DNA from: a virus
Taxonomy: Duplodnaviria > Caudoviricetes
Strand: one strand, 5' to 3'
Length of the DNA: 64,000 bases
IMG/VR virus record: IMGVR_UViG_3300021400_000154
Location: 32,001-96,000 of that record
A program made the translations under genes and the position numbers. Positions 11,326-61,998 of the stretch are shown here, in pieces. The notes below the pieces were generated by a model. It was not told the origin of the DNA. It worked only from the letters and a program-made list of their open reading frames with translations, and searched no databases. How positions within the stretch are numbered: the first letter of the stretch is position 1; each line of letters begins with the position of its first letter.

Positions 11326-11332
11326 TCTCTTG

Positions 11333-11380
11333 AAGGGCAAAAGGGGCACCCTTATGGTGCCCCTCGCCCTGATTTATTTT
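11333..11380 (+). terminator. Rho-independent terminator after the capsid gene
   Basis: AGGGGCACC-cttat-GGTGCCCCT hairpin followed by a T-rich tract. Confidence 0.65.
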
Positions 11381-11401
11381 ACAAGGAAGAAGGTATAAGG
11401 C

Positions 11402-11872: not shown

Positions 11873-11889
11873 TAAAGGAGGCGCTGCCC

Positions 11890-12339: not shown

Positions 12340-12348
12340 GGTGAGAGC

Positions 12349-12687: not shown

Positions 12688-12705
12688 TGAAAGGAGCTGG
12701 CGCAA

Positions 12706-15143: not shown

Positions 15144-15224
15144 CAATATGATTGACTACACGAAGTCTGTAGGGGGACAGCGTGTTTTCAATATATACAA
15201 AAATAAACCAAAGGAGTGTTGCAT

Positions 15225-18529: not shown

Positions 18530-21500
18530 ATGCCGAATGATCAAGTAGTACTTGATGTCGTTTTTCAGCCTCAAGTAGAAAGCCTGATTCAATAGTTGCA
18601 TCAGGCATCACAAATTGCGTCAGATGACGTTCAAACAATGCTTACCGAATCAATAACTCAAGCTGGATTATTGGCGAAAGAATCTGAAGGCTTTTAGTCT
18701 CAAAGTATGCCTCAGGAATATGTTCAAATGGCACAATCTTTAATGAATGCCATGAATAAACAAGTTCAAGACATCATCGCACAGCTTAATAAGGCATCGC
18801 AAGATGCAACTTCTTCTGGGTTTGAGGATGGTATTATCCAAAGAATAAAGACTACAATAGGTTCGCTTACTGCGAACATTATAGATCAAACTTTTTCAGT
18901 TGGCGCTATGAAAAATATTGTTGGTCAGATAGCACCTGATATGGCACAGTCTTTTGCCCAAAACTACAGAGATTACTATTTGCAAGCAAGTAGACTTATG
19001 GCAAGGCAAGCCAAAAACCCAGCAACAAACGGCGAATGGATGAAGTACCTTGATTTAGATTCTGGCTTTGCCGCTGGTCAAAGAGCTATGATGCAACATT
19101 TTGGGTTGTCAGAAGCTCAAATGAGACTGATGCAAGAATCAGTAGTGCGCAGCCAGCCAAATCAAATACGTATCGATTACGCCAGAAATGCTGTTCGATA
19201 TTCAGGTGGGGCCATGAAGAAAGTTGGCGTGATCCCACAATATATGACATATCAAGAACGGCTACCTGCTTTTTATCAGGGCTTAAGCAACCAACCACAA
19301 ACAACAACGTTGTCCCCTGATGAAAGGCAGGCTTTACAAGCAGAAGTAAGTGATGAGCAATGGAAAACAATCAGAAGTATAGCCGCTAGCAACCCTTCTT
19401 TTGAAAAAGCTCTTATTATGGCTGGATTAGCCCAAAGAACAGTCCATAACAAAGCGGCAGGTTAGTTAGTTATGCCACAAAAGCCAGTAAGTACTGAATT
19501 GGTTGCAAGAGCGATTGGCCATTTACATAGAGATATAATGATTCCTTAGCTCGAGGGAGCGCCATCTAATTACAGAAAAATCACATAGACATCTGGTGAG
19601 GATCAGATGGCAATGGCAAATGCAGATTAGAAAACAGTGTTAGATATTATCGATGCGTTTCATAAACTTGCTCCATTGGGTATTTCTCCCGTATATGGTG
19701 ATGCTGTTACACGCCCATATAATCCACAGACTGGCGTTTCGCGTGTACGAGGTGCGAAATCTACTGCAGCTCCAGAAAGATATCAGATTATGAGTTTAAC
19801 ATGGGATGATTTCCAAAAAGGAGTTATGCTTGATCCACATGGCCCTGTTCAAAGCGAATATGAAGAAGGCGCAAGGGGCACATCGACAAACAAGATGATT
19901 CTTGAATCGGGTTTCACAAGAATGCTCGGCATGCATGGTAACAACACGTTCGGTAATGGAAGCAAAACAGATAATAGTTCGCCTTCTATAATACAAATTG
20001 ACTTGTAGGATCGATTATTAAAGAAACGTAAAGACGGAGAGTTAGAATGGGAAAATGGACACGTTGTTCAAGATGAAGATACTGCGAAGCTAATCGAGCG
20101 TATATTTACTATTCCGCAAGGCCATTCTCACCCGAGAGTTCAGTTTGGCCAAACTGGTATTCATTATGTTCCTACTAATGTGAAGAATGGCGTGATTACT
20201 CTTGGACGGGAAGATGCTGTTGAAAGTGCAATCAGCGATTCTATAAGACTGACAGGGCATAATGTGCTCGCTAATATGGTTGACCCGAATACTGTGTTCT
20301 AGACATATACTGATTTGAATAAACAAATCGAGGCATACAACAGAGACTTAACTCCGTCTGTGCCTATTGAAAGAATGGGCGGAAAGCTTCCTGATAAAAA
20401 TAGAATCGCATTTGTTGATCTGTCTTCGTTTACAGGGAAAAAAGATAGTAAGACTGGCCGTAATGACTATCACGATGGTTCATCCTTTTTTATGCCTGGC
20501 TTTATTCCAGGTGGCAATGCAACATACAGAATCGCCGGACAAAAGGGCACAGCTCAAACAGTTGATTTCCGTGCAATGATTAGAGATTTATACGGCGATG
20601 TTGATCATTTTTATTTGCCTGCATTGAATGCTCCGAAAGAATACAAAGATGCATTTAACCAGCATGGTATTGAAAAAGTTAGAGAAATGATGCAACAACG
20701 AGGAGAGTTGTAGAAATTCGAAGAATATTTCCTTGATGCGTTACAGTTTGATGCGCTTATATAGGACTCAGTCATTAAATCGCCTGCGTACAAAGGCTTG
20801 ACGAACGCACAGGCGCAAGATCTTTTTTATAAAACAAAAGAAACCCCTATGGGTATGGGCATTGTACAAACAGCAAGCCAGTTTTTGACAAAAGGGAAAC
20901 TTTCTCTTGGCAGACAGTTATCTCAGCATTTAGACTTAACACCAGAGCAGATAGCAGAAAACAGAGAGTTGTGGGAGAACTATATAAATATGCTCAGATA
21001 TAGGCCAGAAGAGACTGCAAAGAGGTTGTTTTCAAATCCTAACAATTCTTTGGATTCTAAGATAATGGCTAACCCTGGATTAATGTGGGATGACCCAGAA
21101 GCAAGGTAGATTGTGCTAAACGAAATATCTAAAGCTATGATTTCTATGGCGAACGGAGAATTGTTTTAGGATGGATTATCGCCTTCTGCTCTGGCCGCAG
21201 CGAACCCAGCAAAGATATTAATGGATGCAGCCAGCAGAAATGGCCTTAAGATACAGAATCCATTACTTGCGCGAAGGCTTACACTTGGAACTGGTAAACT
21301 TGCTGCAGGATTCTTGGATGATGACGAGATAGCAGTTGGAAGATGGCCAATGACACCTGGAGAACAATATAGTGCCCAACTATAGAAAGATTACTTGGAG
21401 GCTGGAAGAAAGTACGGGCTCGCAGATGACGTTTTTTATACTGATGCCGGATTTATCGGAGCAATGGGAGGCGGAGATGTCGACGGCGACACGATCCAGG

Positions 21501-24500
21501 CATTAAGAGGAAGACTTCGTGATTATGTAAAAAACACAATAACTGCAAGAGCTGGTAAAACCGGGCAACGTGATGCGTCTTTAATACCAGAACCTTTGCC
21601 AGCAAATCAAAAAATAGGGCCAAGAGTTTTTGCAGATCAAATGTTCAGAGCTGCTCAGCAGCAGATCGAATTAGGAATGGTCTCTAGAGCTCAAGACGCT
21701 TTATCCCAACTTCCTTGGATTGACCCAGAAATAGTTAGACAATATGGGCAAGCGAATGCAGACTTAGCCATGCAATATGACGTAGATTCGACTTTTTTGA
21801 AGACAGGCGTATTGGCGAACTGGACTCAGGCCTCAAAAAATGCAAGGTATTTAGGCAGACCTTTCAGTCATGTATATAAAGACCTTGTTGGAGCTATCCA
21901 AGAAGGAGATTATTCGAAAATAAGAAAAATGTAGGAGTTGAACTTTCCAAGTCGGTATCATGCTTTGACGGCTTAGATGATGGAAAGTTTATACCAGAAT
22001 CCAATAAGTAACACAGCTATTGACAAAATGATTGCTGCTCAAGAAGATTTAGAAGGAATACCTCAGCTTGAACAAGGAGAGCTATATCAACGAAGTCAAG
22101 CCGCGTTCTTAAGAGAAAACATACGAGTGATGTAGCAATTACTCTCTTCAAGAGCTGGTTTTGTTTCAACCGAAGATTTTGAAAACCTTGGAGCAAAAGC
22201 AAAAAAGTGGCAAGCTGACGTCCAAACAGAGCTTGCTCGACCTGGCATAGACGAAAAAAGAAAGAAAGTTCTTTTGGAGAATTTGGGACTTGCACAACAG
22301 CAACAATACCGTTTAGATCGCTTAAGACAGTTCGGTGTTATTGAAGGAGCTACAGACGGTTATGTTAGCTTGTTTAAAAACACTAGAGGCACTTCTGGAT
22401 AGTCTGTTTTTAGTGTTGCGCAACAGCAAGCCACGGATGCAGAAGCAGCTGAGGTTGCGGCAAGAGTTGGCGCCAATCCAACAATGATAGCAGCGATGAG
22501 AACTGCTGCGGAGAATGCGCAAATCGCTGACGCTAAACGAAAAGCCGAGAGCGCGAGATATAGTTTCTCTCAGTTGGCTCTGTTGGATAAAAGCCCTGAA
22601 GAATGGTTTAATCGGTACATAGCTAAATCAAGCGAAACAGAAATGACGCCAGCAATACATATTGGCAACGTTGTTGATAAACTTACGACAGAATGGGGTT
22701 ACAGGAGACTAGCTGAACAAAAAGGGCAAGGAAAAATGCTTACTCCTGATGAGTTTGAAAAAATGTTTGTTGCCTTGTTTACAGGAAACTTTGATCCATC
22801 TTCTTTTATAAGCGGTTTTGACGAGCGCGAACGCAATAAGTTTACAGATGCGGCGAAAAGGCTTGGTTTTCAAAATGGAATGGAACATCCATCTGACAGA
22901 TATAGAAATGCTTTAGCATATGTTAGAGCGATGCCTTTCATGTTGCCAGATGAGGAAATATTGGAATGGGATGATAATGGAGAGAAAAAACCATCTGTTC
23001 AAGTACGCGTTCGCCCTGATTTCGGAACAACTCCTTCGGGAAGCAGGGTAAATAGTATTGGTTTTGTAGACTTGATCACGAGAAATAAACATACAGGTCA
23101 GATTACAGAATGGGACACAAAAGCAAATAGCGACCAAGAAGGACGTACTGGAGGCATCAATCAAGTATATTCTTATAGTACAGATCCTGCCTTCCAGCCT
23201 TCTCATATTGGAATCTTAGCGTACAATGATCCTGAACACACGGTAACACAGCTTCCTTTTTCTAAAGAAAGACAAGATGAAGTCCGAGCTATGACTAGGG
23301 ATATTCTTGCTCAACGTTTTTTAATCGCTGAGCATGGAGACAGTTGGGATTTTATTCGGAATCAGTTCTATCCAGGAATGAACGAAGCAGCAGAACGCAC
23401 GCAAACTGAAGCCGAACATCAACAAAGTAGATCTTTTATGGAACAAGGAACTGGAATGGCAATGGCCAAAGCAATGACGTTGCAAAATGATATCACAGAA
23501 TATGAACAACGCATGCAACAAATAACACAACAACTACAAAATGGATTAAGGCGTAGAAGCGGGGATCAAACAGATAATCCTTGGGAGTCTTTTGATGCGC
23601 AGTTGAATGCTTCATTTGATGCAAGAAGACGACAGTTGGTAAAAAGGGGAGCCAACAAAGAAGATTTGGTAGGTTTAGACGAAGAGAGAAGAAAAGCTGC
23701 GGAAATGTTCGACAAAGCTTTAATGGAAGCGGCCGGTGGAGAAAAATCCGATATCGTTCAAACAATAAACGCGCTAAATGATTAGTTCGCTAAGCGACGG
23801 TCTGATTCCGGTTTGACAACTTACATTCAGGAATTTGAGGGCATTGAAAAGGCAGTTAAATAGGCTACTATGGCGTTTGACGTGTTTGAACAAAAGATGG
23901 CAAAAAAGAAGAACTTGTCGCAGAAAGATCAAGAAGCTCTCGACCGTGGAAGACAGCAAAGAGAAGAGCTTACTGGTTTGGCAGACATACAAAGGCGCGC
24001 TATATAGGAAGAGGCAAAACGGAAAGCATTGTCGCAAATAGAAGATTTTGCAATAGATCAAGGTACCATGGAAATGACTCCAGAAATAAGAATGCAGCGT
24101 ATCAAACAAAAAAGGGCAGAAGAACTGATGCGTACTCAGTTAGCCATAGGAGAGTTAAAAGATAAAGGCCTTTTATCGGAAAAAGATTTCGAATCAATGT
24201 CTAGCAGTATTACTGATATGCTTGGCGATCAATAGCTGGGTGCTTTTGCTGCGCGCGCTGAACGAATCCGACTTGGATTAGAAACAAAAACGCCTGAACA
24301 AATGAGTCAGGAGCGTTTGAGAGATATTCGAGCAGCGATTGCAGCATAGGTTGAATCTGGAGGAGACAGTCCTGAAGTTGCCGCAGCAAGAGAAAGAAAA
24401 CGTGCAGCTGATAAAGCTTTGGAACAAGCACAACAACAAGCTGCGGAAGCGCAACAGGCAGCGGGTGGTAAAACAGTTACAGCTGAAGATGTAGCGGCGG

Positions 24501-27500
24501 CAAATGCTACAGTAGTATCAGCAAAGTCCAGACTTAAACAGTTGCAATAGGAAAGAGATCGAATAAGTACAGATATACAAACCCGCACATCTGCTCTTAC
24601 AGGAACTCAGGCTGAACAAAAAGCTCGTCGAGATGCTCTTCAGTAGGCATATGGCGAAGCGAAATCAGCCTATGAGCAAGTTGTAGCTGCCCGCCCTGCA
24701 GACGGAAGTAAGGCTCTCGAGGAGAAAAAGGCAGCTTTGCAGGCAGATTTAGAAAAGCGAAAGAAGATTGGTACTCCGGAGCAAGCGGAAGAAGCTTTAG
24801 CGCGAGAAAAAGCAGAATTAGAGAGACTTACTGCAGCAAGCGGAACTGCATAGCAATCTCTGAAACAAGCCCGCGCAAGCCAAACAATAATGGATCAAAG
24901 AAAGGAACAGCAGGATATTATTACAGCTGCGACAAAGGATTTAGAAAAACTCAAGCCAGATCAGGAAAGAATAACAGAGGCACACACTAAAGCTAAGGCA
25001 GCCAGAGCTGCTGAAAAAATACATAAATTACAACCCCAACTTGGTGGGAAAACCCCGGAAGAAATCTTGCAAGAAGAAGAAGACGCCAAAAAGGAACTTG
25101 AACAGGCTCAGAAAGAAAAACAAAGAGCAGAGCATGATGCAACTGCTTATTGGGGTAGCCGAAAGAGGAAGGGTTTGAGTCAACAAGGCGACTTTAAGGC
25201 AATACGTGGAGAGCTTTTAGATCACCTTAGTAAACTCAGTCCCACAGAGCTGAAAGACCTTGGGTTTATATAGCTTGCACCTGATAAAATGGACGAGGAT
25301 GCATTGGCCTCTACCCTCAAATACAACGCTGGTGCTTTTTCTAGATCTCGCGACACATCCCTTTCAGGACTTGCAGCTTAGTTTGTTGAAGCCTGGAAAG
25401 CGGAGAAAGATTTCCGACCGATTTCAGGAAGAGTAGAGGAAGCACAAGGGAGAGCCGCAACAGCTCAAGCAGCAGTAAAAGGACTTGAACAAAAGGCCGA
25501 AGCAGCAAGGAAAATACAAGATCTTTTGCGTGATACTCCTGGAGCTAAAGAAATGCTGTCAAAAACAGACGAAGAACTCGCCGGCTTTAAAGAAGCGGAA
25601 GATGCTCAGAGCGTATCCGAGAAATAGCAAGCAGCACAACAAAAGATAAGCGCAGCTTTGCAAGAGTTAGCTAAACTTCCTGAACCTAAAGAAGTTGATG
25701 TCAAAGGGAAACAACAAGAAGCTGCCGAAGCGGCTGGAGCAGTGGATGCTCAAAAATTGAAGGTTGAAGCAGCAGAACAAAGATTAAAAGACGCTAGAGA
25801 ACTGGACACACGAATCAGAAGTTTTCCCACTCTGACAGAGCTAGAGGAACAAATCGAAGCCGAAGGGCAAAAGCAGACCGATGCTGCCGAAGCAGAACGC
25901 AAAGCAAAAGAAAGAATGGATCAAGCACAAGAAGCGTTAACTGCAGCTACGCCACAAGACACTACAACAGCTCAATCAGAGATCGCAAGCTTGAAACAAC
26001 AGCAAGCCCAAAACCAAACGCAGATAGAAGCTCAACAGGCAGTAGTAGCACAGGCGGAAGCAAACCTTGCGGCAACAAATGCTGCTGCTCAAAACCCTGA
26101 TGAACGGATAGCCAATGCGAATGCAGCTGTTGAGAATGCGCAAAATGAAGCAAACCAAGCAGCCCAGGATCTGGAAGACGCAATAAAGAAACAGGATTCC
26201 ACTGCGAATCAAAGTATTGACGAGCAAATGAAACCCCATGTTGAAAGAGAAAACCAAAAGCTTGAAAGAATCCGTCGGAAAAGCGAGCGCGCCAGAGAAG
26301 ATTTCAGGCGTATGCTTACCGGCGAAACATTGACTCCAGAGGAAAGAGCTGCCAGGTCTGAAGAAGACATTAAATTCGCGCTTCAGGAAGCAAGAGACAA
26401 AATGTATGAAGATGGCAATCAAGATTGGCAAAAGCTTGATGAGATCCTTGGCAATGATAGTATGTGGGCATAGTTCAGGCAGCGTACTTAGCAACAGGAA
26501 AAGACCATGGACCAGCTTGCTCAGAACGATCTCGAGCGTACTGCTCAAGACCTGCAGAACAGAATAACCGGACACATGGAAACGAAGGAAGAAATGGAGA
26601 ACAGAGCGATCCAGACGTTCAGGGATCAAATCATTCAGAAGCGTGATGCAGCGAAGAAGAAAGGATTGGATACTTAGGCTTATGACAGGATGCTTGAGAA
26701 GGATGAGAATGGACAAGAACAGCTCAGAGGCGATTTACAGGGTGCCATCAAGGAGCAAACGGATTTACAGAGACAACAACAGATCGCTCAGCGGAGAATG
26801 CAGAATCTCGGTATTCTCAGGCGCGTATCTGGTTTCACAAGCACGACAGATGCCGCTGCTCAATATGAAGCTCAGAAGCAACAGGACCGTATTGCTTTTA
26901 AGAATGCAAGAGACAAAGCTGAAAATACAGCGGAAGCAGAACGCACAGAGCAAGATCGTGCTCTCCTGGCGATGACCGAAAAGGATTGGGAACGGCAATA
27001 CGACGAGCAGAATCTTGGAATGCAAGGGCTTGGTACAAGGGACGCTGCGAGAAAAAAAGCACAAGACGATTACCGCAATAATAAGGGTTATATTCAAGAA
27101 ATCCAAAACAGCGCCTTGTAGGATACAGAAAAGGCAGCAAGACTTGCAAGATTTTCCAGGTATCTGGGACAAGACAGACAGCTTATTTCCGAGGAAGATT
27201 ATGTCAATCAGGAACTGTAGTTATTTGATGAAAGAGCTGATATAGCAAGAAGAAATGCTTTGCAAGGTATAGATCAAGCGGCTGATGCTTCTATGCAATA
27301 CAGGTTAGGAAAGCTTTCTAGTGGGCGGCGTGCGTTAACTAGCTTTGGTATGACGTCGCAAATGGAGCTTTCAAGGCGTTTATCAGCTTTCAATCAATCT
27401 GCTGCCGCGCGCAGGAGTAGCGTCTCTTTATCTTCAAAAATCAAAGAAACAGAGACAGAGCTCGCCTCGCTCACAGATGCAGACAAAGAAAAAAGAGCTA

Positions 27501-30500
27501 CTCTTGAAGCCAGGCTACAAGCTTTGCGCGATCAACAATCATTAGCTGATACGCAGTCTGAAGAAGCAGAGCAGAGAGCTCTCGGAAAAAACAAAAAGTA
27601 TCAAGCCGCAAGAGGAAAATACGATCTCGCAAGACAAGCTTACGATGCCGCGTTGAAAAACAATGATTCTGATTAGATGGCAAACGCAGCACAAGGTATG
27701 CGCGACGCCGAATAGGAAATGCAAAGAATCGCGGCAACATCTATAAGCGCGCGAGCTTCCCTCTCTGCTCTTGGGCAAACGTTTGCTAGGGTTGGCATGC
27801 AGTTCGGAAGGCGCATATTCCAGGCAGCCATTCGTGAAGCGACTCAGTTTGTCAAAGTATATGATCAAACCATGCATCAGATTCAAGCCATAACCATGAA
27901 ATCCAACCAGGAGATGGCTACAGTCAGATCTTCTACGATAACTCAAGCTATAGGTTTAAAAACCTCTGCGACAAACGTTGCACAGGTCAAATCAGAGTTA
28001 TATCGGCAAGGGTTATCTGATTCGCAAGTTAATGACAGAACTGATTCGATTATAAAGTTTTCTGCTGTCACAGGGATGAAGGCAACGCAAGCAACAAAAG
28101 CTCTCACTACGGCGTTGCAAAGCGGACTTGTTAATAATATTCATGAGGCAATGGACGCGATGGTCGCTCTGGGCGATAGCGCAGCAACGACAGCTGAAGA
28201 AATAGCAAAAGGTATGCAAAAATCTGCTGCGGCTGCAAAAGTTGCAGGCGTGTCTTACGGTGAACTGACATCCATGTTAACAGTTATCACCAGCAAAACT
28301 CAGCTTGGCGGCAATCAAGCAGGCACAGCGCTTCAAACGATATTCAGCCGGATGCGCAGAGTAACAAACGAAGGTATAACCAGTGATGAAGGCGGAGAAA
28401 TCACAAGCGTCAATGATGTCGAAGAATCTCTTCAACGTGTTGGCATTTCTATGAGAACAGACGCTAACAGTTTCAGAGATACGTTGGATATCCTTCGCGA
28501 TCTTGCAAAAGTTTGGAATGATTTGAATGACATACAGAAGAACAATATCATGTATAATATGGCTGGCGCAAGACAGAGCAATATGTTCTCTGCTTTAATG
28601 GAAGGATTGGCTGATGATAATGGTAAGACATTTGATAAATATCTTGGGCTTACTGAGGATAGTGATGGGATAACTCAGAGCAAATACGAAATCGTAATAT
28701 CAAACATCAATGCAGAACTCGACGAACTGAAAACCACATTCGACGGGCTTGTAGAAGCAGTCACAAACAATGGATTGTTAACGTTCTTCATCGACCTCGC
28801 AACAACCATTACTGGTTTTGTCGCAGGAGTTTCCGATGGATTAGGAGCTATCCCTTAGCTTCTCTGGGCTATTGCTGCTGTGTTAGACGTGGTGAAGATT
28901 AAAAGCGCTGCAGTGGCCGTATTCAAAGGATTGGCGAATCCTGCTACGTTAATAGGGCCGATTTTAGGCCTTCTGGCTGTTGCAGGAGTAGGCGCTTTGG
29001 GATCACACATAAGTGGATCAAGAAAAGCAACAGAACAAAATACTGAACTGAAACGACAAGCCGATTCTGACTTTCTAGAACATGCATCCAGTGTTCGTAC
29101 GGATAGCATAGAAAAAGTGGAAAAAGCACTTGACAAAGTAAAGCAAATGCAAAAGATAGATGTCGATATGGAAACAGAAGAAGCCCAAAAAGCGCTGGAA
29201 GATCTCAAAAGAAGCACAAAGGCGATAGGTGGCAATATCTCTGATTGGCCAAATGCCGTAAGAGAGGCTACAAAAGCTATAAATGAAGCGAGAAAAGAAA
29301 GTGCACTATTTTTACTCGGACTTGGGGATACTGGGGCAAAGGATCTCCAGACAAAATATAATAATAATGTTTAGACATATAATGGTGCCATCTAGTAGTC
29401 TGATTTTGAAGACGGCGGTATATTATATGGCAGATCAATTTTCCAGGGTATATCTCAAAAGGACTTAAAACCTTACTCAACACAAGACGGTAAAGGCGGC
29501 TATACTTACGAAAGCTTGATAAATGATCATTAGAAACTTGACATGAAAGCGCCTCGTAAATCTATGACTTATAGAGATGCGATGAAACAAGATTTAGAAA
29601 ACATTGGTATAAAGACAGAGGGGCTGTAGGACACAGACTTGATCGATTTGCACGGTGTATACTATTACAGTGGCCTTTCCCAAAACTTTAGGCGCGTTAA
29701 ATACAACAAGAATGCAGGCAATCAAAATCGTGATAACCAGGAATATGCTTACGAATTTTTTAAACAGCTTTCTGACAACACAAATCAGCAAAATATAACC
29801 ACTTCATCATTGAAACGTGTAGAATCATGGTTTGATCTGTGGACTAAAACAGCAGGATATGAAAACTTTATGAATGCTCATGGTGGACATATAGGTTCAT
29901 ATACAGCAGGTGGTTCCTTTGAAGACTTTGCATCTGTTATGGCAAAACAACAATACGAAGGAGTTAGAAATGAAGTTATTGGGTTATGGGATTAGGACGA
30001 AACAAGAAACGAAATCGCAACAAGAGCTGCTGAAGAAAATGAAATTCTGTCTAATATGGACAGCTTGTTCGTTCAGTCGCTTATGACTAACGATGATGCA
30101 TATGGGCCAGCTGTAAAACTTTGGACTTAGGGTAACGAAAAGTTTAAGGATCGCATTGTTTCCGAATTTCTTGATTACGCAAAGGACCAAGGTATTACGC
30201 CGAATTATACAAATGTTAAAGAGTGGCTAATGAAACAAATTGAAACTTATACTTCTGATGAATTCCTGCGGATGTATGGGTCTCCCGAAGACTTTGAGTA
30301 TTATTATTCAGATTCAGAAGGCAATCCATTGTTTGGTGCGCATGATTTATAGCGAGAAGCAATCCTTGAGGCGTACAACGAAGAAGTTGCGCTTGCCGAG
30401 AAAAACGGTAACACCAAACGGGTTGAGGTACTTAAAGCGCTGCAAGAAGAAGTAAGTAAGTATAATCCTTTGAAGACAAACAAAATATATACGTCATCAG

Positions 30501-33500
30501 GGGCGCAAGTTGGCGGTACTATTGGAAGTATTTTCGGAAGCACGAATCTTTCTTCTAAAGACTTGGGATACAGAACTGAATACGCACAACTGCTTGCGAT
30601 GGCTAACGGAGTAACAGACTATGACGCATTTAAAAATACAGAAGGATACACGACATTGACGGCTCTCGCGCAAAACGATACTGCTCTGACGACTTTAATG
30701 CAAGATGCTAATACCGGACGAGCTGGCCTTGCTGATATTATTGACTATCTTGAGAAAAAAGTCTATGGCGAAAACTATATACAAACAACAGCGTCTTCAG
30801 GTAGGGCCATATCTGAAAATAGACTTGATATTGCAGCGCTTAAAGATGAAACTAGTCCTTTGCCTGCTTCTGTTGCCAAGCGCGTCGCAAGCGCGATTAA
30901 TCAAAACGAATCGTATGTTTATCAAAATAGACAGGCCGCTGCAGCTATGCTTGAGTAGACTACCGATCAAAACCAACGTGGTCTTGAGACAAAAGCTCGT
31001 GGATGGATAAGCGATCTATATCGGTTTGCGTAGAGAGAAGATATGCTTAAGGACTTAAGAAAGAACTATTAGAAAATGTCTGACGAAGAAATAGCAACGA
31101 TGTATGGGAGCTGGGGCATTACAAACAGATCGATGGCTGCGGCTGTTTCCAATAACAGTAAAGTCCTTAGTTCTGATTAGGAAGCAATGAATTATATCCA
31201 AGCTCTTGCTGCCCAGCTTCCTGGATTTGAATATGATAAGCAAACTGGCGGAATCAAGTTTACAGGTATGGATGTAAAAGGTTATGAAGATGTTTTGTCT
31301 TTTGCTCCCGTTATAACAAATCATGATGTAAGAGACCTTGCTGAGACAATGTTGAATGGTGCGGAAGGGAAAACGTGGAACGATTTTGTTAATAAAGCCA
31401 ATCAAGATATAGCAAGACAGTTAATGCAGCAAAATCCTGAACTGTTCACGTATATGACGATGACTGATGCTCAACGAAGAACAGAGGAAGGACAAGCCGC
31501 ATATTATACTGCAAGACAGCAACTTCTTACGTCTGAACTCCAAACGCTTGAAAAAATCGGGCAAATCCTTCCAGAGGCCACTCAAGTTGCACAACAACTT
31601 TCGAGCGGATCTTATGGAGATCAGATTGCAGGCATTAGTGGTTTTGGGTCTATGGTGCAAAGCTATGGTTAGATAGTTGCTCTTAGGCAGAAAATATCTT
31701 AGATGACAAACTTAAGCGATGAAGAATGGAAATAGCAAGGCGGAGAAGCCTACGTCAACAAGCTAGCCACGATGTTAGGATTGGATCCTTAGCTTTTTGA
31801 CAAGAGTAATGTTGACGAACTGCTTGAGCAGGGCAAAAAGAAAGCAGACAAAATATCTAACGGTTTGCAACAAATTATTGAATCTGTATTCGACATAGAT
31901 TTATCCAACTACGACAATCTGGAAGGCGTTATCGCTAAGCTCGAAGAAAGCGGAGACGCGTTATCAAGCTTTTTTGCCATACTATTAAGATCCCTTTCTG
32001 ATGTATATGGGTTAAAGATAAATGATCAGCACGAGCTCGATGTGGAAGGCAACGGCATTTAGGGAGCTCAAATATTCCAAAGTGCAGACGAAGAAGAGTC
32101 TTATTCGGATAAAGTCATAGGGAGAGACGCGTTAGCCGCGTTCTCAAGCCAAGCAAGAATAGCTTCGACTTCTGAAACACCTCAAACTATTGGCGATGTA
32201 GTTGGTTGGCTTGTGCAGCAAGGGATTATCTCTGAGACAAATCAGATGAAAAATATGCCTGGTTTTGCTGGACTATTAAACAAATACGGCGCAAACAAGG
32301 TTATTACTCCTGATATTGCGGACGAAATAGAGACGCTTACTCCATGGTCTTAGATGCTGGTTAACACGGAGTATGGCCGAAACGCTGATTTGTTTAGCAC
32401 AGCATTGAACGAAGATGGTACAATAAATCAAGATAGATTAAAGGCAATCTATAAGTCAGATGTCGATGGTTCATTTACTTCTTGGGCAGGCGACTTAACG
32501 TACTTACAAGATGCCATAAATGGTGTCGATGGCGCGATGGAAAAACTCAACAATGAAATCTATTACAAAGGTTTACGCGCCACACATGCATTTGGAGAAA
32601 ATACAGAAGAGATTGTTGATGGTATGGCAGACATGAATAAAGGTTTAATCCAGGCTACAAACAGATTCACCAAGTTCAATGAGACAACGACAAAAGCTCT
32701 AAACAACAAATATTACATCAATATGTGGAAAAAGGGAAACAGAGATTCGAAAGTTGTAGATTACATTTCTTAGCTAACGAAGATGGATAAAGAAATGGTC
32801 AGCTCCCGAAAGTATGACGCTCAAATTAATACATTGTTGGAATCTATTGAGCTTGGTGATATTAGCGCTATTGAAACAGAAGGCACTACTCTTATGGGAA
32901 GTTTAGGAGAACAGCTTCAAGGGATGCTTGACAAAGAAACGATGACTCTGCATCTGAATAATGTCGATGTGGATCTTTCAGAGGGATAGTACAATGTAGA
33001 TTTTAAAGATGTGAATACTAGGCTTGCAGGCATAATCAAAGATCAGCAAATGGCAATGATCAATACGCTGATGCAAGCTGGCGTCAAAGGCCACCTGGAA
33101 GTGTCTGGCAGCGGCGACAACATCGTTGTTCAAATGGTAATAGACGATATGGGCGAAGGTGTTAAACACACTGGTGGCGGTGGCGGTGGAGGTAAGTCAG
33201 CCGCTCAAAAACTGATTGATCGACTCAAACATAAAGACTCTGAGGCTGATCATCGCCTTAAAATGTTGCAATATGAGGAGACAAGATACGAGAATGCTGG
33301 AGAGATCACCAACGTCAACGCGTTAATAGGCCAGGAAAACACGCTTCGCGAAGAACTCAATAAAAAATATGAGGAAAACATTGAAAAGTTAAAAGAGCAG
33401 ATGGCGAAGACAAAGAAAAACACAGACGACTGGTACAGCCTGCGGGATGCCATCATGTCCTACGAGGAAAAGATCAAAGAATCGAATAACGCAATAGAAG

Positions 33501-34969
33501 AGAACAACCGGAAGATTGAGGAGAATCTGCAGAAGATTCGTAAGCTGCGCACTGCACTTGAGCAAACGGTCGAGCAGGAAATCCAGAACAGAATCAAGCG
33601 TGAACGAGATATGCTTTCCGGGACAGTTGATATGCAGAATACGGTTCTTGACGCGATCAAGCACCGGTATGAGGAAGAGTGGAAACTCGTCCAAAGGGAT
33701 ATTGACAAGAAGAAGTCTGCGCTTGAAGAAGAGAAGAACCTGATTGAGGAGCGGCTCAACAAGCGCAAGGAAGCAGAAGATGAAGCCCAGAAGTACGAGG
33801 AGCTTGCGGAACTTCGCAGACAGTATGCGCTGATCTCCATGGACTCCACCAGAACAAAAGATGCAACAGAGATGCGCAAGAAGATCACGGACATGGAGAA
33901 GGAGCTCGCCTATAAGTCAGCGGAAGACGAAGTGAAAGCGCGGCAGAATGCGCTTGACGAACAGATTAACGCTTACGACAAGTATACTGAGAACGGCGAA
34001 GAGGATCTTCAGATGCTGCTCGACAATGCGAATAACTTTGGCGACGAGCTCAACAAAGTTATTGGCATGAAGGACGAGGAGCTGTACAACTGGCTGATGG
34101 AAAACGTGACCGAGTACGCCAACAGCGTCAAGGAAGCGCAGAAGCAGATCATGCTTGGCTGGGAAGACACGTATAACCAGATGATTGGTTATACGCCAAC
34201 CTACTGGGATGGCTGGACTGATCTGGAAGGCAACGAGCATGCTGGTGTTTACGACATTCTGTAGAGCAGAGAATCGTATCTGGAGTTCATGAAGGAAAGC
34301 CAGGATTACCTCAACGCGTCCGAGACTGATAAGGCAGCCATGGAGTACGAACGTGGCACTGCTTACGACGAGTGGATTAACTCGCTCAAGACAGGTGCTT
34401 TCTGGGAACACTTTGATAAATGGATGGAGACGCTTGGCTTAAGTTCAGTGACTTCTGGAAACAGCGGAGGAAAAAACAAACCTGATTTGAATGACCAGTT
34501 AAAACAGTTAGGAGAAACAGCAGCCAAACTTACAGGTAGAACTGTCGCTGATCTGCTCGAGATTGAACGTAGATTCGGGTTGTATGCAGGGCAACAGTTT
34601 AACGCTGGGACAACCAATGCAAACGGTATTCCTGGAAACGCTTCCGGTGGCCTTGTCGACTACACAGGTCTTGCCTGGGTTGATGGATCGATAACGAAGC
34701 CTGAGGCGTTCCTGTCTGCTGCGGACACCGAGCTGATGCGCAACATGCTGGATGCTGCATCCTACCTTGCGTATCGTCCGACGATCAGCAATATCGACAG
34801 CAATGCTTTCGGCAAAGGCGGGATTAATATCGGAGACGTGAACATTACCATCACAGAAGCGAGTTTCAAGGAAGATGCAGACTATGAGCGGGTGGCCGAA
34901 CGGGTTGGCGCGGCATTCGTCAAAGAGCTTGGCAAGCAAGGATTCAACACAGCCAACTATGCATTCTGA
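18530..34969 (+). CDS. giant tape measure polyprotein (~5479 aa, >50 in-frame TAGs) with RNA polymerase-like and PD-(D/E)XK nuclease domains
   Basis: AGGAGG RBS and ATG 18530. All 21 long + ORF fragments from 18707 to 34289 share one frame, and every intervening stop I checked is TAG. TP901-type tape measure core at ~27800-28800 (GNQAGTALQTIFSR...NMAGARQSN); C-terminal ASGGLVDYTGLAWVDG..KPEAFL; ends in TGA. Confidence 0.85.
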
Positions 34970-36232: not shown

Positions 36233-39200
36233 ATGCTTCGTTACAAAAGGAACCTGATTCTTGACGTGTACGATTACAGCGGCAATAAGCAATGCACGTT
36301 GTATGACAGCACATCAGATTTATCCGGCCAGGCTACAGACGTTGTCGTAACGATTGAGCGAAACGGCTGGAAGGAGCTGTCGTTCACCATCCCCACAACA
36401 TGCGAAAGCGAGAACGGCGGGCAGGAAGAAAACTTCCGACTGCAATACCTGATCGCTGACTATCGGATTCGCCTGAAGGATGATGATGGGATCGACTGGT
36501 TCCTGATCTCAGAACCAAAGATAACACATAATGTTTATTCGAAGAACGTGTCTGTGTCAGCAGGGCACATTTCTCAACTGCTGAAGACGAAGAATCTTGG
36601 TCTGGAGTTCTCCGACCATGAGGGCAATAATGTAGGAACAGCGGAAGATCTTCTGACAAAAATCCTCGATGGTACTGGATGGTCTGTCGGAAGTGTAGCC
36701 GACTTCAAAGAGAAGCGTTCCGGCGCAACCAAGATCCGCTCTATGAAAGCTTCTGCGAAGACAGGTGCTTTTAAGCTGATCTCCAACATGTGCGACCTGT
36801 TCGAGGCGAAGCCTGTTTACCATGGAGATTAGAAGACGGTAGACATTATTCCGATGAACCCGTTCTCAGAACCGGAGGATGGATCGCTGCCTGCTGTGGC
36901 GACAGGTGAATGTATTGAGCTGCACTACGGGAAAAACGTGAAGAACGTTACGAGAACGCTGAACACAGAAAACCTCGTGACGAAGCTGTATGTCTATGGC
37001 GCTTATGGTGATGCAGTGAACGGATACTGCGGTATTGACGAGTGGCATCACAAAGAATACGTGTTGACTCCTCCAGGAGCAATCCCTGCAGGTACGCAAT
37101 GCACATTCTCCGTGACGGACGATGTCTCGGGGATCACGTATACGAGATACTTTGTGGCGAAGAACGCGATCTCTGCGTCTGCAAGGCTGATATGGTAGAT
37201 GTTGGATCCTGCTTCCATGAGCTATGTATGGGATGAGGAGAACAATGCTGCCTATAGTGTGTCTGATAAGACAGATACCCATTACAACCTGATCATCAAC
37301 ACAGCAAATCCAAGCACAACTGCAGCAAAAAGGCCGCGCTTGATTCATCAATCCAGCAATACGGAATCTCGTGCAGGAAGCACTGCCGCAACAGCAGAGC
37401 ATGGCATGAAGGTAACTCTTAACTCACAAATCAAATATCAGTATATTTATTTCGGGCAGAGCACTAATGGGAAAGGAACCATGCAAGGACTGGAGCCTGG
37501 GCAAACATATACCATGTCTTTCGATGCCACGTGGAAACTTGAAAGTGGGCGGGCAACGCCTGCAACAGATAACTTTGTTGTGTTTATTAACATAGACAGA
37601 GGAACAAATACATACTCAACACTTACAAGAAAGACGATCAAAACCTTTACAACAGGAGAAGAAACATAGGACAGATGTGAATCCTTTACTTTTACTATTC
37701 CAAACGATTGCGTCAGGTGTTATATAGGAATACGTGCAGACAGTTCGACAGCCGCCAATTATGCGAAGGGTGACTTCATCGAAATCCGAAACGTCAAACT
37801 CGAAGCAGGTTCAGTTGCAACACCTTGGTGCCCATCGGAATCTGAATAGACGCTGACTGTCACGGAAACAAATGTTGTTGACAACAAGGTATCCTATCTG
37901 ATGGACTTCGATTATTACCGCAGCGTCGGGCTGTTGACGGATGAGATGCTTGACGAGGTAGGTGCTTTCCAACGCGAGATTCCTGCCCTTTTGGATACTG
38001 CGCAGACGAACGCTGCAGCGTACGCCTCCACTATCAACGATCTGTCCGAGACGATTGGAACGCCTGATTTCTGCAAGCTCTCCGCGCAGTATGATACAAG
38101 CGGAGAATACCTTGGGTTAAACTTGAACACAGGAACAGGCGGTTATCCGAAAGGTGTTATCTACAGAACGGACTATGCGCTGAAGGAATCGAAACAGTTC
38201 CAGTGGAGAACCACGAGTAATATATACCCGAACGGAGACCCGTATGAAAACTATGCAGCGGTGGTTTACATCGTTCACACACATACGGATCCTTGCACAT
38301 ACGACATCGGATATCTTCGTGCGGTTAACGATCATTTGGAACCAACAGAAGATGATCAGAAAGCACCGACAAAGCTGTCCTTGTGGCTCAAGAGTGCAAA
38401 CTTCGATGATTCTCACTCAAACACAGATCACATCTATCTGTTCAGGCAAAACAGCATCATCGGCGACCTTGGCGCGATGATGCTACAGGACGAGACGGCG
38501 GAAGATACGCTTAAAGACAGCGTAAAGAACCAAATCAAGGGTGATCGCCTCGTGTATTATACGGATCAGGCGATCACAAGAGAAAATCCTGGATTTAACT
38601 TCGTTGGATATGCCTGGGCGTGGAGGTATTACAAAGATAACTCGCAGCCATCTGAAATGTACTTCTGCGATCTTGATGCCGGAGACGTAAGCTGGCACAG
38701 GACTTTCGTTACAAAGAATCCTCCAGCGAACACATTGGGTTCTAACCAGGATTACGCCTATTGCTGGAAAGAAGGAACATTATACCGGAAGAATGGCAGC
38801 GCCTGGGAAAAACAAACAAATAAGTCTACCGTCGACGACAACTTCGGCAGGATGGTTTCCAGTTTCGGCACCGTGTACAACAGCTGCGTTGATCGCGACA
38901 TGATCAGAAACGGACACTATGAGTATTATGCAGTGGATGCCCAGGAAAACCTGCCGGTTGGCAACTACGCTATCGCAGACCCGTTTGGAGTCTACCATGC
39001 GTTTACAACGAAGGCACAAACCGATCAAGGAAAACGGATATCTTTCGACTGGACGCACGGTTGGGTGGCGATATTTAACAGCGGTACAGACCCGTAGAGT
39101 GTCGACATCACGACTGTGATTGATGACGCTCTGACCAGTTCCCAGTACCGGTATGATTCTGTATTCGACAGCGGCGAGGATGTGCTAAACGATGCGATCT

Positions 39201-41641
39201 GGGAAAGCGGCTCGATTACTGCAGGCTCTGATCCCAAAGCAGGAAGCCCGTACATCATTATGGGCGGTGGCGAAGTCATTGATGCTTCCTAGCAACGGAC
39301 TGGATTCAGAGGCATTTATCCGAAGATTATCTATCGCCTGACCCGCCCTGGAAATCTCGAATGCGTCGTTCACTTCTATACAGCAGAGCACGGGTATCTT
39401 GGTTGCAGAACACTCAGCGCCGGTTCTTCCAGCGACAGTACTGTAACGGAAATCACAGCGCCTGCGTACGCAAGGTTTGTTCGCGTTGTAACATCCGCAG
39501 AAGCGAGCACCGAGTCTTTCTCCATGCAGTCAAAGTATGCCGATCAGTCCTTTGTTGTGCAGGAAGAGGAATACAGAAACCTCGGCATTGGCACAGGATA
39601 TGGAAAGCTAAAAGGTATCATCCCGATGATTAAAAAGTTCCAGGAGCTATCGGACCTGGCATATCTGGTCCAACTGGACGCGGTAAAGACAGCACAGGCG
39701 GCAGTAAAGGAAGCAGAGAATCATCTGATTGATGTGCTTGGCGATATTTATCGGGAAGGCTATTGGCAGAAGGCCGACTATGTGGACGGCGACGAAGAGA
39801 AACTGTATGACGATGGAATGGAAAACCTGAAGAAGATCGCTAAACCAGATACTACTTATAACGTTCAGTATCTGGATCTCTATGGGGCGAACACAGCAGA
39901 GCACGAGTATGCAGAAAACGGCATTGTTGCTAAGACGTACTGGCCTGATCTAAGCTCGAACTATGCGGTTCATCTTGTGGACCCGGACATCGGCATCAGC
40001 CAATGGGCGTTCATTGACAAGATTTAGAAATGCTATGACATGCCGTGGAAAACAACCATCAGCATCAATACGAACCTGACCACAATACAGCAGCATACGT
40101 TTACGGATGTCATGACGCACATCGCAGATGTCGCATCCCAAGTCAAAGGGAAAATGGAGCTGTATGACAGAGCCAAAGCATTCGACGAAGATGGAAAGAT
40201 GTCGACCTCTACGTTGCAGGGCGTTATTGATGCGAATACGCTGCTGATCACAGGCGGCGCTTCTACATGGTATACAGACGACAAAGGCAACATGGTCTTT
40301 GTCTCTGCCGATGAGAAGAGCGCAATGACGTTAACTGGCAACGGGTTTGCAATTGCGAACCAGAAAGACGAATGGGGCGAATGGATCTGGAGAACCTTCG
40401 GTACTGGCTCGGGGTTTACCGCTGATCTGATTACAGCCGGTACACTTCAGGCAGACAGAATACGGGCAGGTTCTATTACGCCTGCGAAAGCTTCGCCAGA
40501 CTTCGGAACCTACATCGACCTGACAGAAAACGGCACGATCATCGAGAATGCCAATGCGGCGAAATCATATACAGATGGCAAGACACAGGAGACAATGCAA
40601 GAGGTTACGAACGTGACGCAGAAACTGAATGCTGTGAACGGAAGGTTCGACAACTATGTTGAGCAAACGGTTTACAACGCAGACAAAGATGTCGTCGACC
40701 GCAGAGTGTCCTCCGTGGAGCAGACAGCGAATGGCGTAAAGACAACGGTGGACGATTACATCAACGAAATGGGAACCTGTGTAGAGATTACCACGAACGG
40801 TCTCGAACTGCGTCAACGGCAGAACTCGGAGTACTACGCGATGCTGACGGCAAACTCGATTGACTTTAAGAACAGGTCGAATGGTGATTCTGTTGCTTCG
40901 TTTGGTGCCGGTGGTGCTTACATTGACAAGGTACGATCCAGGAAAGTTCTGTCGGTCGGTACTGAGGAGAACGGCTGGTATGACATGACAGCGCTTCCCG
41001 GTGGCGTGGCAGACAAGTGGCGTGACGGTACTGCTTCTGTGCTGAAGCCGATCATCATTAAACAGCCGGAAGATTACTATGCGGATTTCCAGGCTGGATC
41101 ACATCCTATCACAGGGACTACCAACTGGCCAGAAGCATTTACTTTTACCGTGGAAGCTGAAAATGTTGCTTCGTATCAGTGGCAATACAAAACTGCGTTT
41201 AACGCAACCTGGATTGACGGTTCCGCTGAAGGCAATAAAACCAACACGCTTACGTCTACTTTAAACGCCCAGCGTCTAAACTTCATATACAGATGTCATA
41301 TCATAGGCAACGATGGAACTGAACTGTATACGAATGAAGTGCAACCCAGAATGAATAATGCTCCTGTTATTCTCGCTCAGCCAAAGCCAGCGTATCGGGA
41401 AGTAGCAATTGGAGATGTCGTGCAACAAAGATTCTATGTTGTCGGAGCAACATCTTATCAATGGCAATACAGAACAAGCGCAACTCCAACTGGCAAGTTC
41501 AAAAATGTAAGCGCAAACTCGAACGCTCCTACTCGCGACGCAACTTCGGCAACTGCCTTGAAGCAATACTATCGTTGCGTTGTAACAGGGCCAACCGGAG
41601 CTATTGCCGTGACTGACGAATTTGTCATCGAATGGAAGTGA
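36233..41641 (+). CDS. baseplate hub/tail spike (Tal-like, ~1802 aa, 7 in-frame TAGs)
   Basis: Six ORF fragments in one frame, joined over TAGs at 36830, 37196, 37667, 37847, 39095, 39290 and 40025. Prophage tail endopeptidase-like N-terminus (YGKNVKNVTRTLNTENLVTKLYVYG), CBM-like insert (NVKLEAGSVATPW), FTADLITAGTL spike motif, two C-terminal Ig-like repeats (SYQWQY). Confidence 0.8.
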
Positions 41642-50521: not shown

Positions 50522-51493
50522 TTAGCCGGTTAAGGCGGCATACATCTCATCGAAACCGTCCCCTCTCAGGCTGACGTAGATGTTCATGGTGACGCCGATG
50601 TCTGAGTGCCCGAGAAGCTTGGAGAGAACTTTGACATCAACGTTTTTGTAGTAACAGTTGGTCGCAAAGGTATGCCGGAAGGCATGGGCTCCTCTGTACT
50701 CTACTCCTGCTGCCTTGCATACCTGGCGAATGTGTTTCGCAAGATTGTTGTAGCTGAGCCAAGAGTCTCCTGTTCCCGGAAACACCCATGTACTGTTCAA
50801 CGGCTTCAGCCTTTGCAGGAGTTCGATTGCCTTTGGAGTCAGAGGAACTGTGCGATTGCTGGCCTTGGACTTTGCGCTTGGTTGATACGCGCAAGAAGTT
50901 TTTCCTGATGGATTCAGAATGGTGGCTTCCACGCGAAGCCGCTTGCGCTGGATGTCGATCTTGTCCCAGCGAAGTGCCAGGACTTCCCCTGCTCTCAGGC
51001 CTGTCTCAAGCATCAGACCGATGGCGATCACTGCCGGATGGTTCTTTGTCTCGATGACATTCCAGATGCGTTTCTGCTCTTCCTCTGTGTAGGGCTCCAC
51101 GACTTTGGTGTGCTTCTGTAGCTTCTCATCATTGGGAAGTCTGACGCCAGCGGAAGGATCAGCAGGGATCAGATGCATGGCAGCCGCTTGTCTGAGGGGC
51201 GCAGTCACGATCTGCATCTGCTTTTTTATTGTGGATAAGCCATACCCTTTCTGGGCAAGCTCGTTGATGTAGAGCTGGATATGGAAAGCAGTAATGTCCT
51301 TGATCTGCATTGTTGCTATCCTGTGCTTCAACAAGGATTTGTATGAGCACAGCAGCCTGTTCAGCGTTGCAGATTTGACGGATCCTGCCTTGAACATATC
51401 GAGCCAAGACTTGACATAGTCTGCGAGAATCATGGATGGATACATGTTCACATCTCCTATTTCTTCGCAGCGAGTGAAGTTGTCAAGGTTCAT
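50522..51493 (-). CDS. int: tyrosine recombinase (integrase)
   Basis: ETGLRAGE (R), HAFRHTFAT (HxxR), LLGH, NIY (Y); SAM-like N-terminal domain; AGGAGG RBS before ATG 51493; no TAG. Confidence 0.92.
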   Translation of the reverse strand: MNLDNFTRCEEIGDVNMYPSMILADYVKSWLDMFKAGSVKSATLNRLLCSYKSLLKHRIATMQIKDITAFHIQLYINELAQKGYGLSTIKKQMQIVTAPLRQAAAMHLIPADPSAGVRLPNDEKLQKHTKVVEPYTEEEQKRIWNVIETKNHPAVIAIGLMLETGLRAGEVLALRWDKIDIQRKRLRVEATILNPSGKTSCAYQPSAKSKASNRTVPLTPKAIELLQRLKPLNSTWVFPGTGDSWLSYNNLAKHIRQVCKAAGVEYRGAHAFRHTFATNCYYKNVDVKVLSKLLGHSDIGVTMNIYVSLRGDGFDEMYAALTG

Positions 51494-51533
51494 AGCAGTC
51501 CTCCTTTTAAAAAATAAGGGCTGCCATACTGGT

Positions 51534-51562
51534 ATTATACCAGACATGACAGCCTATGTAAA
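51534..51562 (-). promoter_or_regulatory. sigma70 promoter for the integrase
   Basis: TTTACA-N17-TATAAT on the - strand, overlapping an inverted repeat (GGCTGCCAT...ATGACAGCC). Confidence 0.65.
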
Positions 51563-59017: not shown

Positions 59018-59102
59018 CGCGGAGTACAGGATTTGAACCTGTGGTATGTCGCCATACGACGGTTTTAGAGACCGCTGCAATAAACCACTCTGCCAACTCC
59101 GC
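59018..59102 (-). tRNA. amber-decoding tRNA (anticodon CUA) with serine-type body
   Basis: GCGGAGT-TG-GCAGAGTGGTTTATTGC-A-GCGGT-CTCTAAA-ACCGT-C-GTATG-GCGA-CATAC-C-ACAGG-TTCAAAT-CCTGT-ACTCCGC-G; anticodon at 59066-59068; long variable arm; G73. Confidence 0.92.
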
Positions 59103-59105
59103 ACA

Positions 59106-59190
59106 CGCGGCGTGGAGGATTCGAACCTCCGGAATCTTTCGATTCGACGATTTTCAAGACCGTAGCCTTCAGCCTCTCGGCCAACGCCGC
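59106..59190 (-). tRNA. tRNA-Ser(UGA)
   Basis: Acceptor GCGGCGT/ACGCCGC, loop CT-TGA-AA, variable arm GAATC-GAAA-GATTC, G73. Confidence 0.92.
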
Positions 59191-60092: not shown

Positions 60093-60675
60093 ATCAGAGG
60101 TCCTCTGATCAGCAAGCATTGCAGCCTTCGCCATACTTCCAATACCCTTCACACATGTTCGGTCACCGTGAAACCAGAGGCTGAGCCACAGGTAGCGACC
60201 CTGTAACTTCTCTGGCCTACCCAAAGGGACAAGCACGGAGGCGATTGACTACGCCTAAGTTTCAGCCAAACCATTCAGCAATAATCATATTATTATTAGT
60301 TAATGTCGCGTTGGCCTACTCCTACCCCAAACCTTACTCACAGGACATTTCTGCCCCTCCCGACACCGGTCGCGTCTTGGTGGCATTTCCAGAGTACCGA
60401 CAGTCGCCAGCTAACGTCTTTTCTGGATTCGTGGGCTGGTTGGGCCCCTTCTATTGTGACGCCGTAAGGAATGGTACCTTTGTGTGCGAATACGAAAGCG
60501 CGCAACCTTATCATTGGGCTTTGCTTTCAACCCTATCGCTGGCAGTTACCTGCTTCGCGTCCCCTCTTGCGAAAGTATCCCATCGCGAGAGACTGGATGA
60601 TGTACGGTCGCCCCAAGCAGTGTGGTTGGCACCTCTGCACTTGGGTCAATGCTTGCTGATCAGAAGACCTCTGAT
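60093..60675 (-). ncRNA. large structured ncRNA, ROOL/GOLLD-like candidate (583 nt)
   Basis: Ends form a 29-bp inverted repeat (60093-60121 with 60647-60675; one G-U); no credible ORF; inside a phage tRNA array. Confidence 0.6.
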
Positions 60676-61913: not shown

Positions 61914-61926
61914 CTCCTTATTACAG

Positions 61927-61998
61927 CTGGGGACAGTGGAGTCGAACCACTACTGTTTGAGTCAAAGTCAAATGTACTTGCCGTTATACGAGTCCCCA
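61927..61998 (-). tRNA. tRNA-Gln(UUG)
   Basis: TGGGGAC acceptor; TTTGA-CT-TTG-AC-TCAAA anticodon arm; G73. Confidence 0.88.

Follow-up and report, generated by a model that had tools for sequence, protein, structure and literature searches.

The E. coli supD and phage T4 psu1+ suppressors are serine tRNAs whose anticodon has been changed to CUA and which are still charged by SerRS; they insert serine at UAG because SerRS ignores the anticodon. Both are single laboratory mutations that act on rare nonsense codons, whereas some 80 TAG sense codons have accumulated in the genome of the phage described here. A further parallel is offered by Candida and related yeasts, in which CUG is read as serine through a tRNA-Ser(CAG). 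There, as here, the anticodon-blind SerRS allows a tRNA-Ser to take over a codon by a change of its anticodon; however, the yeast change is from sense to sense and concerns a eukaryotic nuclear code, while the present one would be from stop to sense in a virus.

Among phages, the closest described cases are those of Ivanova et al. 2014 (Science 344:909), in which, according to the account given in a 2015 review (PMC4695839), UAG is read as serine and as glutamine in phages that encode a Ser-tRNA(CUA) or a Gln-tRNA(CUA). As far as that account goes, the likeness to the present phage lies in the combination of UAG = Ser with a phage-borne Ser-tRNA(CUA), and the difference in the RF2 that the Ivanova phages also encode, of which none was found here; beside them, the present phage would represent an SPbeta/c-st-like clade of gut or rumen Clostridia phages. 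The phage surveys consulted report only the recoding of TAG to glutamine and of TGA to tryptophan, and Borges et al. likewise observed only these two. The gut phages that use code 15 (crAss-like, Lak, Garnet, Topaz and phAss-1) resemble the present phage in that their TAG codons are concentrated in late or structural genes, in that they carry a phage CUA (Sup-CTA) tRNA, and in that their integrase is free of TAG. They differ in the meaning of the codon, which is glutamine in those phages and most likely serine here, with a type-II tRNA of serine body.

Our analysis suggests, from comparison of sequences, that the amber codon UAG has very probably been reassigned to serine in this phage. This reading, which had been put forward in an earlier note on the same DNA, is supported both by isotype profiles of the CUA tRNA and by conserved serine columns in homologous proteins. 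The reassignment of TAG to serine in phages is already known in kind, though neglected, and the present phage is a well-supported further case; the more novel part is the coexistence of the standard, serine and leucine codes in one clade.

Genome, clade and candidate hosts

The window analysed here, a stretch of 64,000 nucleotides, covers bases 32001-96000 of a phage contig of 110,614 bp. The contig is complete, with a 107-bp terminal overlap, IMG/VR class DTR and a CheckV value of 100%. ARAGORN and the Rfam family RF00005 both give a total of eight tRNA genes for the complete sequence, every one of them within the window, and the CUA tRNA is the sole suppressor tRNA that either program finds. 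A glutamine suppressor elsewhere in the genome, which the earlier note had kept as a caveat, is therefore absent from the phage.

For the terminase large subunit (TerL), the nearest proteins come from Clostridium phage c-st, phiCD211 and SPbeta-like phages (25-31% identity), and TerL together with the domains of the 1802-aa tail protein would place the clade near the SPbeta-like siphoviruses of Firmicutes (SPbeta/c-st-like). A temperate lifestyle is probable, since the genome encodes a tyrosine integrase (Pfam Phage_integrase, E 7e-30). The candidate host group is gut or rumen Clostridia, with Acutalibacteraceae and other Clostridia metagenome-assembled genomes (MAGs) as the candidates. In a tree of 78 portal sequences, phages carrying a serine-like CUA tRNA group as one clade (SH-aLRT 87; inner clade 99) that is nested among standard-code phages, and recoding of the leucine type, described below, occurs at no fewer than three other places on the tree.

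Two explanations that look to the host were ruled out. Hosts without GlnRS, which would force serine or leucine upon the codon, are contradicted by glnS, found above the curated cut-off and without gatB in three candidate host MAGs; hosts without RF1 are contradicted by prfA, found in three of the three candidate host MAGs. A release factor and a class-II synthetase core were also searched for in the phage and were not found.

Two further RNA genes of the window may be recorded here (Table 1). The TerL gene is immediately preceded by a tRNA-Met(CAT), and the same arrangement is seen in the closest relatives (L001 and L014). The tRNA cluster also contains, between tRNA-Thr and tRNA-Gly, a full-length ROOL RNA, which scores 277.9 bits with Rfam RF03087 (gathering score 99.1).

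Table 1. Positions of genes, RNAs and TAG codons in the window; for TAG codons, the residues found opposite them in standard-code relatives
Feature	Position	Strand	Remarks
tRNA-Met(CAT)	1043-1114	+	
TerL gene	1144-2784		
Virion block	3324-43565	+	76 of the 81 homology-supported in-frame TAGs of the genome
TAG in portal gene (6599-8266)	6845-6847	+	Ala 41, Ser 13, Val 4, Met 2 of 60
Coding region	8273-13503	+	plus strand confirmed as coding by PHROGs (phrog_4088, E 1e-32)
TAG in capsid-region gene (10153-11322; phrog_4088)	10390-10392	+	Ser 35/46
TAG in capsid-region gene (10153-11322)	10471-10473	+	Gln 46/46, CAG in 45
TAG in gene 12691-13437	12769-12771	+	Ala 27, Ser 11 of 38
TAG in tail-tube paralogue 2 (15216-15992)	15381-15383	+	Ser 28/28 (TCT 20, TCC 6, AGT 2)
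Giant virion gene	18530-34969	+	5479 aa with TAG read as sense; 57 in-frame TAGs
Tal-like protein	36233-41641	+	1802 aa; 7 TAGs; Pfam Prophage_tail, YOMG_N
TAG in Tal-like protein	36830		Thr 12/25
TAG in Tal-like protein	37196-37198	+	Ser 24/25
Tyrosine integrase	50522-51553	-	
tRNA(CUA), type-II amber suppressor	59018-59102	-	85 nt; ARAGORN, Rfam RF00005
tRNA-Ser(UGA)	59106-59190	-	85 nt; ARAGORN, Rfam RF00005
ROOL RNA	60103-60668	-	
tRNA-Gln	61926-61998		anticodon UUG; ARAGORN

A CUA tRNA of serine type

The CUA tRNA and tRNA-Ser(UGA) are encoded on the same strand with a gap of 3 nt, tRNA-Ser(UGA) being upstream, and the two adjoining genes reach Rfam RF00005 scores of 58.4 and 52.2 bits. 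The earlier note had described them as two genes of equal length with nearly identical acceptor stems, and ARAGORN, Rfam and the sequence agree with that description: the 7-bp acceptor stem of the CUA tRNA (GCGGAGT/ACTCCGC) is one base pair off that of its neighbour (GCGGCGT). The CUA tRNA has a 5-bp anticodon stem, a 5-bp T stem and a G-C pair at 3-70, lacks an encoded CCA, and carries the discriminator G73 reported before, which is visible in the sequence and in the ARAGORN drawing alike. Its variable arm is 16 nt long; the 5-bp stem of the earlier description closes a loop of 4 nt, and a single base is left unpaired on either side. The D loop had been called serine-like, which holds in part: the D arm, GGCAGAGTGGTTTATTGC, keeps C11-G24 and G18G19, and the rest of it departs from the host tRNA-Ser consensus. 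The tRNA-Gln of the window, as had also been pointed out, retains its UUG anticodon. Each of the five CUA tRNAs of the clade carries G73, as do all ten tRNA-Ser genes of host-type MAGs; A73 is found in the leucine-type CUA tRNA as well as in host tRNA-Leu and tRNA-Tyr genes.

The cloverleaf was examined in an alignment of seven related tRNAs, comprising five sister-phage CUA tRNAs and two phage tRNA-Ser(UGA) genes. Standard pairs occupy 97.8% of the pair cells, and nine pairs, including four of the five variable-stem pairs, are changed on both sides. None of 500 shuffles matches the observed pairing and covariation, and when the 3' partners are slid along the alignment the pairing falls to 35-55%. 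Pairing and covariation beyond all of the shuffles indicate that the type-II cloverleaf is under selection.

ARAGORN labels the gene 'tRNA-Pyl', a label that it gives to any CUA tRNA. A tRNA-Pyl is ruled out by the 16-nt variable arm and the 5-bp anticodon stem, as opposed to the 3-nt variable loop, 6-bp anticodon stem and small D loop of that class. A tRNA-Sec or allo-tRNA, with 8/5, 9/4 or 8/4 base pairs in the acceptor and T stems, is likewise ruled out by the 7/5 geometry; the eighth acceptor 'pair' drawn by ARAGORN uses the base preceding position 1. A scan for promoters and terminators around the tRNA cluster gave counts at chance level.

The isotype was assessed with nhmmer profiles, which serve as a stand-in for the tRNAscan-SE isotype models. 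The genes used, 10 for tRNA-Ser and 12 for tRNA-Leu, came from three Clostridia MAGs that contain relatives of the phage, and the anticodon was masked. The CUA tRNA of the window scores 26.4 bits on the Ser profile and 12.1 bits on the Leu profile, in agreement with the serine isotype proposed for it. The corresponding scores are 30.2 and 4.5 bits for the neighbouring tRNA-Ser(UGA), and 37.4 and 8.4 bits for the CUA tRNA of a sister phage. The phage tRNA-Leu controls all reach 31-57 bits on the Leu profile, and the controls are classed correctly; the Ser score of the window's CUA tRNA lies at the low end of the true tRNA-Ser range.

As for its ancestry, the sequences nearest to the CUA tRNA are other CUA tRNAs (76-97% identity) and the phage's own tRNA-Ser(UGA) (72%). 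The sister genome G014 has the same spacing of 3 nt between its CUA tRNA and a tRNA-Ser(UGA), and the latter shows 86% identity to a CUA tRNA, with the same unusual D arm. These identities, together with the arrangement in G014, suggest that the suppressor is a paralogue of a phage tRNA-Ser(UGA) and not a recent copy of its present neighbour. The duplication named in the earlier note holds in part only, since the identity to the neighbour is only 72% and any duplication must be old. A DNA search for the CUA tRNA in five relatives gave no match, as is expected of relatives that use the standard code.

TAG codons and the residues opposite them

In-frame TAG codons are concentrated in the virion block of the plus strand, while the minus-strand genes, among which the tRNA cluster sits, are almost free of them. 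In the final ORF set, which was chosen by homology score (by length in a first pass), 81 TAGs fall within the aligned spans of homology-supported ORFs. One example is the giant virion gene, whose standard-code homologues run uninterrupted in one frame for 5000-6400 aa. Relatives with a TerL identity of 60-66% lack the CUA tRNA and have the giant gene open under the standard code, and in 26 of 26 further standard-code relatives fetched around the Dit gene it is open under code 11 across the fetched stretch. In the first pass, 51 TAGs were flanked on either side by 10 aa or more with in-frame homology to standard-code relatives, and only one TAG of the genome (window 47783) was at the stop position of a relative's gene. 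Within the genes for TerL and the integrase there is no TAG, those that seem to belong to them being upstream of the start, and a Pfam scan of the TAG-containing genes at 50-64 kb matched the integrase and one DUF only.

A few TAGs do coincide with the stop codon of a homologue, namely that at position 191 of G014:92892-93674 (-) and that at 47783 in the window. Some genes may still end at TAG and acquire short C-terminal extensions once the suppressor is present.

The residues opposite TAG were collected by translating the recoded genomes with TAG as X and comparing them by tblastn with standard-code relatives, which were six whole genomes at first and finally 83 genomes and loci. The codon opposite each TAG was taken from the DNA of the relatives, and database translations, in which TAG may already appear as Q, were kept out of the count. 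A MAFFT alignment of eight giant proteins had a flank identity of 0.1-0.3 and uninformative TAG columns, and local tblastn columns were used instead. TAG columns were scored against empirical substitution profiles derived from the same alignments, with one vote per site.

Conserved serine columns face TAG at three sites of this genome, which lie in tail-tube paralogue 2, the Tal-like protein and the capsid-region gene (Table 1). The tail-tube site had been aligned before, with INAGQSLYPVAYLPG set against INAGWXLYPVAYLPG, where X is the TAG opposite serine, and this alignment was recovered; the TAG at 14853, which the same comparison had set opposite tyrosine, does face tyrosine in one relative. 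The tail-tube TAG is common to four genomes of the Ser-tRNA clade and the capsid-region TAG at 10390 to six, and that in gene 12691-13437, at a column of alanine and serine, to three. The TAGs that are common to several clade genomes, and that should thus be the oldest, sit at serine or alanine/serine columns. At the portal site alanine is followed by serine, at 36830 threonine is the leading residue, and the other TAG sites of the genome, most of which belong to the giant gene, are variable with small or polar residues prevailing. Opposite TAG, serine is encoded mostly by TCT, TCC and AGC, each at least two mutations away from TAG, so that the agreement is at the level of the amino acid.

For this genome the site-weighted log-likelihood is highest for serine (-110.0), followed by alanine (-115.7) and glutamine (-116.3), and serine is preferred in 85% and glutamine in 11% of bootstraps. 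Support for serine stops at 85% because most of the TAGs (57) are in poorly conserved parts of the giant gene; in sister genomes with the same type of tRNA it reaches 97% (G014) and 99.7% (G007 with L177). When the Ser-tRNA clade is pooled, the commonest residue at the 62 informative distinct sites is serine at 17, alanine at 10, threonine at 5 and glutamine at 4, and the columns in which one residue makes up at least 70% comprise ten of serine and one each of glutamine, alanine and asparagine. Code 15 predicts glutamine opposite TAG in the homologues; what the comparison gives is serine as the best-fitting amino acid in standard-code relatives, in line with the expectation of the earlier note.

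A control is provided by sister phages that appear to read TAG as leucine. In one TAG-recoded genome, IMGVR_UViG_3300029305_007380 (G001; loci L059-L063), the CUA tRNA (G001:49228-49311, which is L025:538-621) is 84 nt long, with A73 and a leucine-type D arm, and scores 41.5 bits on the Leu profile and 8.3 on the Ser profile. Leucine constitutes 55% of the aligned residues opposite TAG in this genome, the same share as opposite true leucine codons, and wins 100% of the bootstraps. Over the leucine-type lineages, which also include the loci L193, L236, L240 and L251/L252, leucine is opposite TAG at 47 of 72 sites and 25 columns of conserved leucine are found; conserved glutamine columns number two when ORFs are chosen by length and none when they are chosen by homology. 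The serine result here and the leucine result in the sisters indicate that the method separates the meanings and that the meaning of TAG follows the tRNA body. A literature search found no paper on TAG as leucine in phages.

A different tRNA form is seen in the loci L248-L252 (for example IMGVR_UViG_3300045988_108237), which have CUA tRNAs of 76 nt with a short variable region. L251 and L252 show leucine opposite TAG, and L248-L250 are almost without in-frame TAGs in the fetched stretch.

Competing readings and the proposed decoding

If the phage used NCBI code 15, TAG would stand for glutamine and the serine-like look of the tRNA would be misleading, for example through charging by GlnRS via U35 and G73. 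Such a reading can draw on the invariant glutamine column opposite the TAG at 10471, on a roughly threefold enrichment of glutamine opposite TAG, on the GlnRS encoded by candidate host genomes, and on published phage surveys in which TAG becomes glutamine only. However, the one glutamine column is set against three conserved serine columns in this genome and ten in the clade, and the CUA tRNA is of type II and scores as serine; the real tRNA-Gln retains UUG. The earlier note had named conserved glutamine columns as the observation that would speak against serine; such a column exists at 10471, the sole TAG site of the genome at which glutamine is the commonest residue, and not at the serine sites just counted. 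The enrichment itself is about 2.5- to 3.5-fold in the serine lineage, but an excess of the same type, about 1.7- to 2.8-fold depending on the run, is found in the lineage that clearly reads TAG as leucine, and the glutamine codons concerned are nearly all CAG, one transition from TAG. This shared excess of CAG fits CAG-to-TAG transitions rather than glutamine decoding, and a mutational footprint is the better account of it, alongside which a minor share of glutamine insertion may occur. We regard glutamine as the general meaning of TAG in this phage as highly improbable.

An ambiguous decoding has somewhat more in its favour but is still unlikely. The CUA tRNA would be charged mostly with serine and partly with glutamine, or a host tRNA-Gln would read UAG as a near-cognate codon, with mixed residues as the result. 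This would accommodate conserved serine and invariant glutamine within one gene, in hosts that have GlnRS, and the CUA tRNA possesses G73, G3-C70, G10 and U35, all of which are among the identity elements of E. coli GlnRS. Other members of the serine clade also have glutamine in the 10471 column, and the TAG is found there only in this genome and its closest relative, which rules out an assembly error. The TAG is thus young, being confined to two close relatives, and is one transition from CAG; with glutamine sites also appearing in the leucine lineage under length-chosen ORFs, a mutational origin suffices. In addition, the tRNA-Ser(CUA) of E. coli supD inserts serine unless its acceptor stem is changed. 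At 10471 itself, either serine is tolerated or some glutamine is inserted at UAG.

Charging of the CUA tRNA with another small residue (alanine, threonine or asparagine), or its descent from tRNA-Pyl or tRNA-Sec, is the least credible of these readings. Alanine is second in likelihood and leads at 10 of the informative clade sites, but the mixture of alanine and serine in the columns is the usual substitution pattern of serine, and the 3-70 pair is G-C, whereas AlaRS requires G-U. Recognition of the anticodon by ThrRS and AsnRS speaks against threonine and asparagine. The 'tRNA-Pyl' label carries no weight beyond the CUA anticodon, and the long variable arm, the 5-bp anticodon stem and the 7/5 acceptor and T stems are against both tRNA-Pyl and tRNA-Sec.

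Serine remains the preferred meaning of TAG, and a decoding scheme can be proposed for it. A paralogue of the phage tRNA-Ser(UGA) would have acquired the CUA anticodon and become the single suppressor encoded by the genome, while retaining its long variable arm, the discriminator G73 and the base pairs of its acceptor and D stems. These are the elements by which bacterial SerRS recognises its tRNAs, and the anticodon is left untouched. Because the enzyme does not read the anticodon, the SerRS of the host should charge the CUA tRNA with serine. With the tRNA gene placed in the TAG-poor minus-strand region and the TAGs in the virion operon, the portal, capsid-region, tube, giant, Dit and Tal proteins would reach full length only after the tRNA is expressed. 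The concentration of TAGs in the virion operon and the location of the tRNA among TAG-poor genes suggest a built-in translational gate on the late genes, and the gene arrangement fits the 'late-gene gate' idea that has been proposed for code-15 phages.

For the group as a whole, it is likely that the amber codon changed its meaning repeatedly within a single clade of large Clostridia phages: once to serine, in the clade of the window, and to leucine at three or more points of the portal tree that are separate from each other. Every such change would have come about through a new anticodon in a type-II tRNA with an anticodon-blind synthetase, so that the tRNA body tells the meaning of TAG. A practical rule follows, in which a type-II CUA tRNA with G73 indicates serine, and one with A73 and a leucine-type D arm indicates leucine.

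The consequences for annotation would be considerable. Annotation under code 15 puts glutamine at every recoded TAG, which amounts to about 80 wrong residues per genome in this clade and would include the invariant serine sites of the tube, Tal and capsid-region proteins. If the present interpretation is true, the practice of translating every recoded phage with code 15 misreads all of these serine and leucine genomes. For the phage, the scheme means that 57 TAGs have to be read in a single gene in hosts that apparently have RF1, with no release factor detected in the phage. The occurrence of close relatives that use the standard code, TAG as serine and TAG as leucine offers a comparison for how the capture of a stop codon starts, and for why it is anticodon-blind synthetases that are involved.
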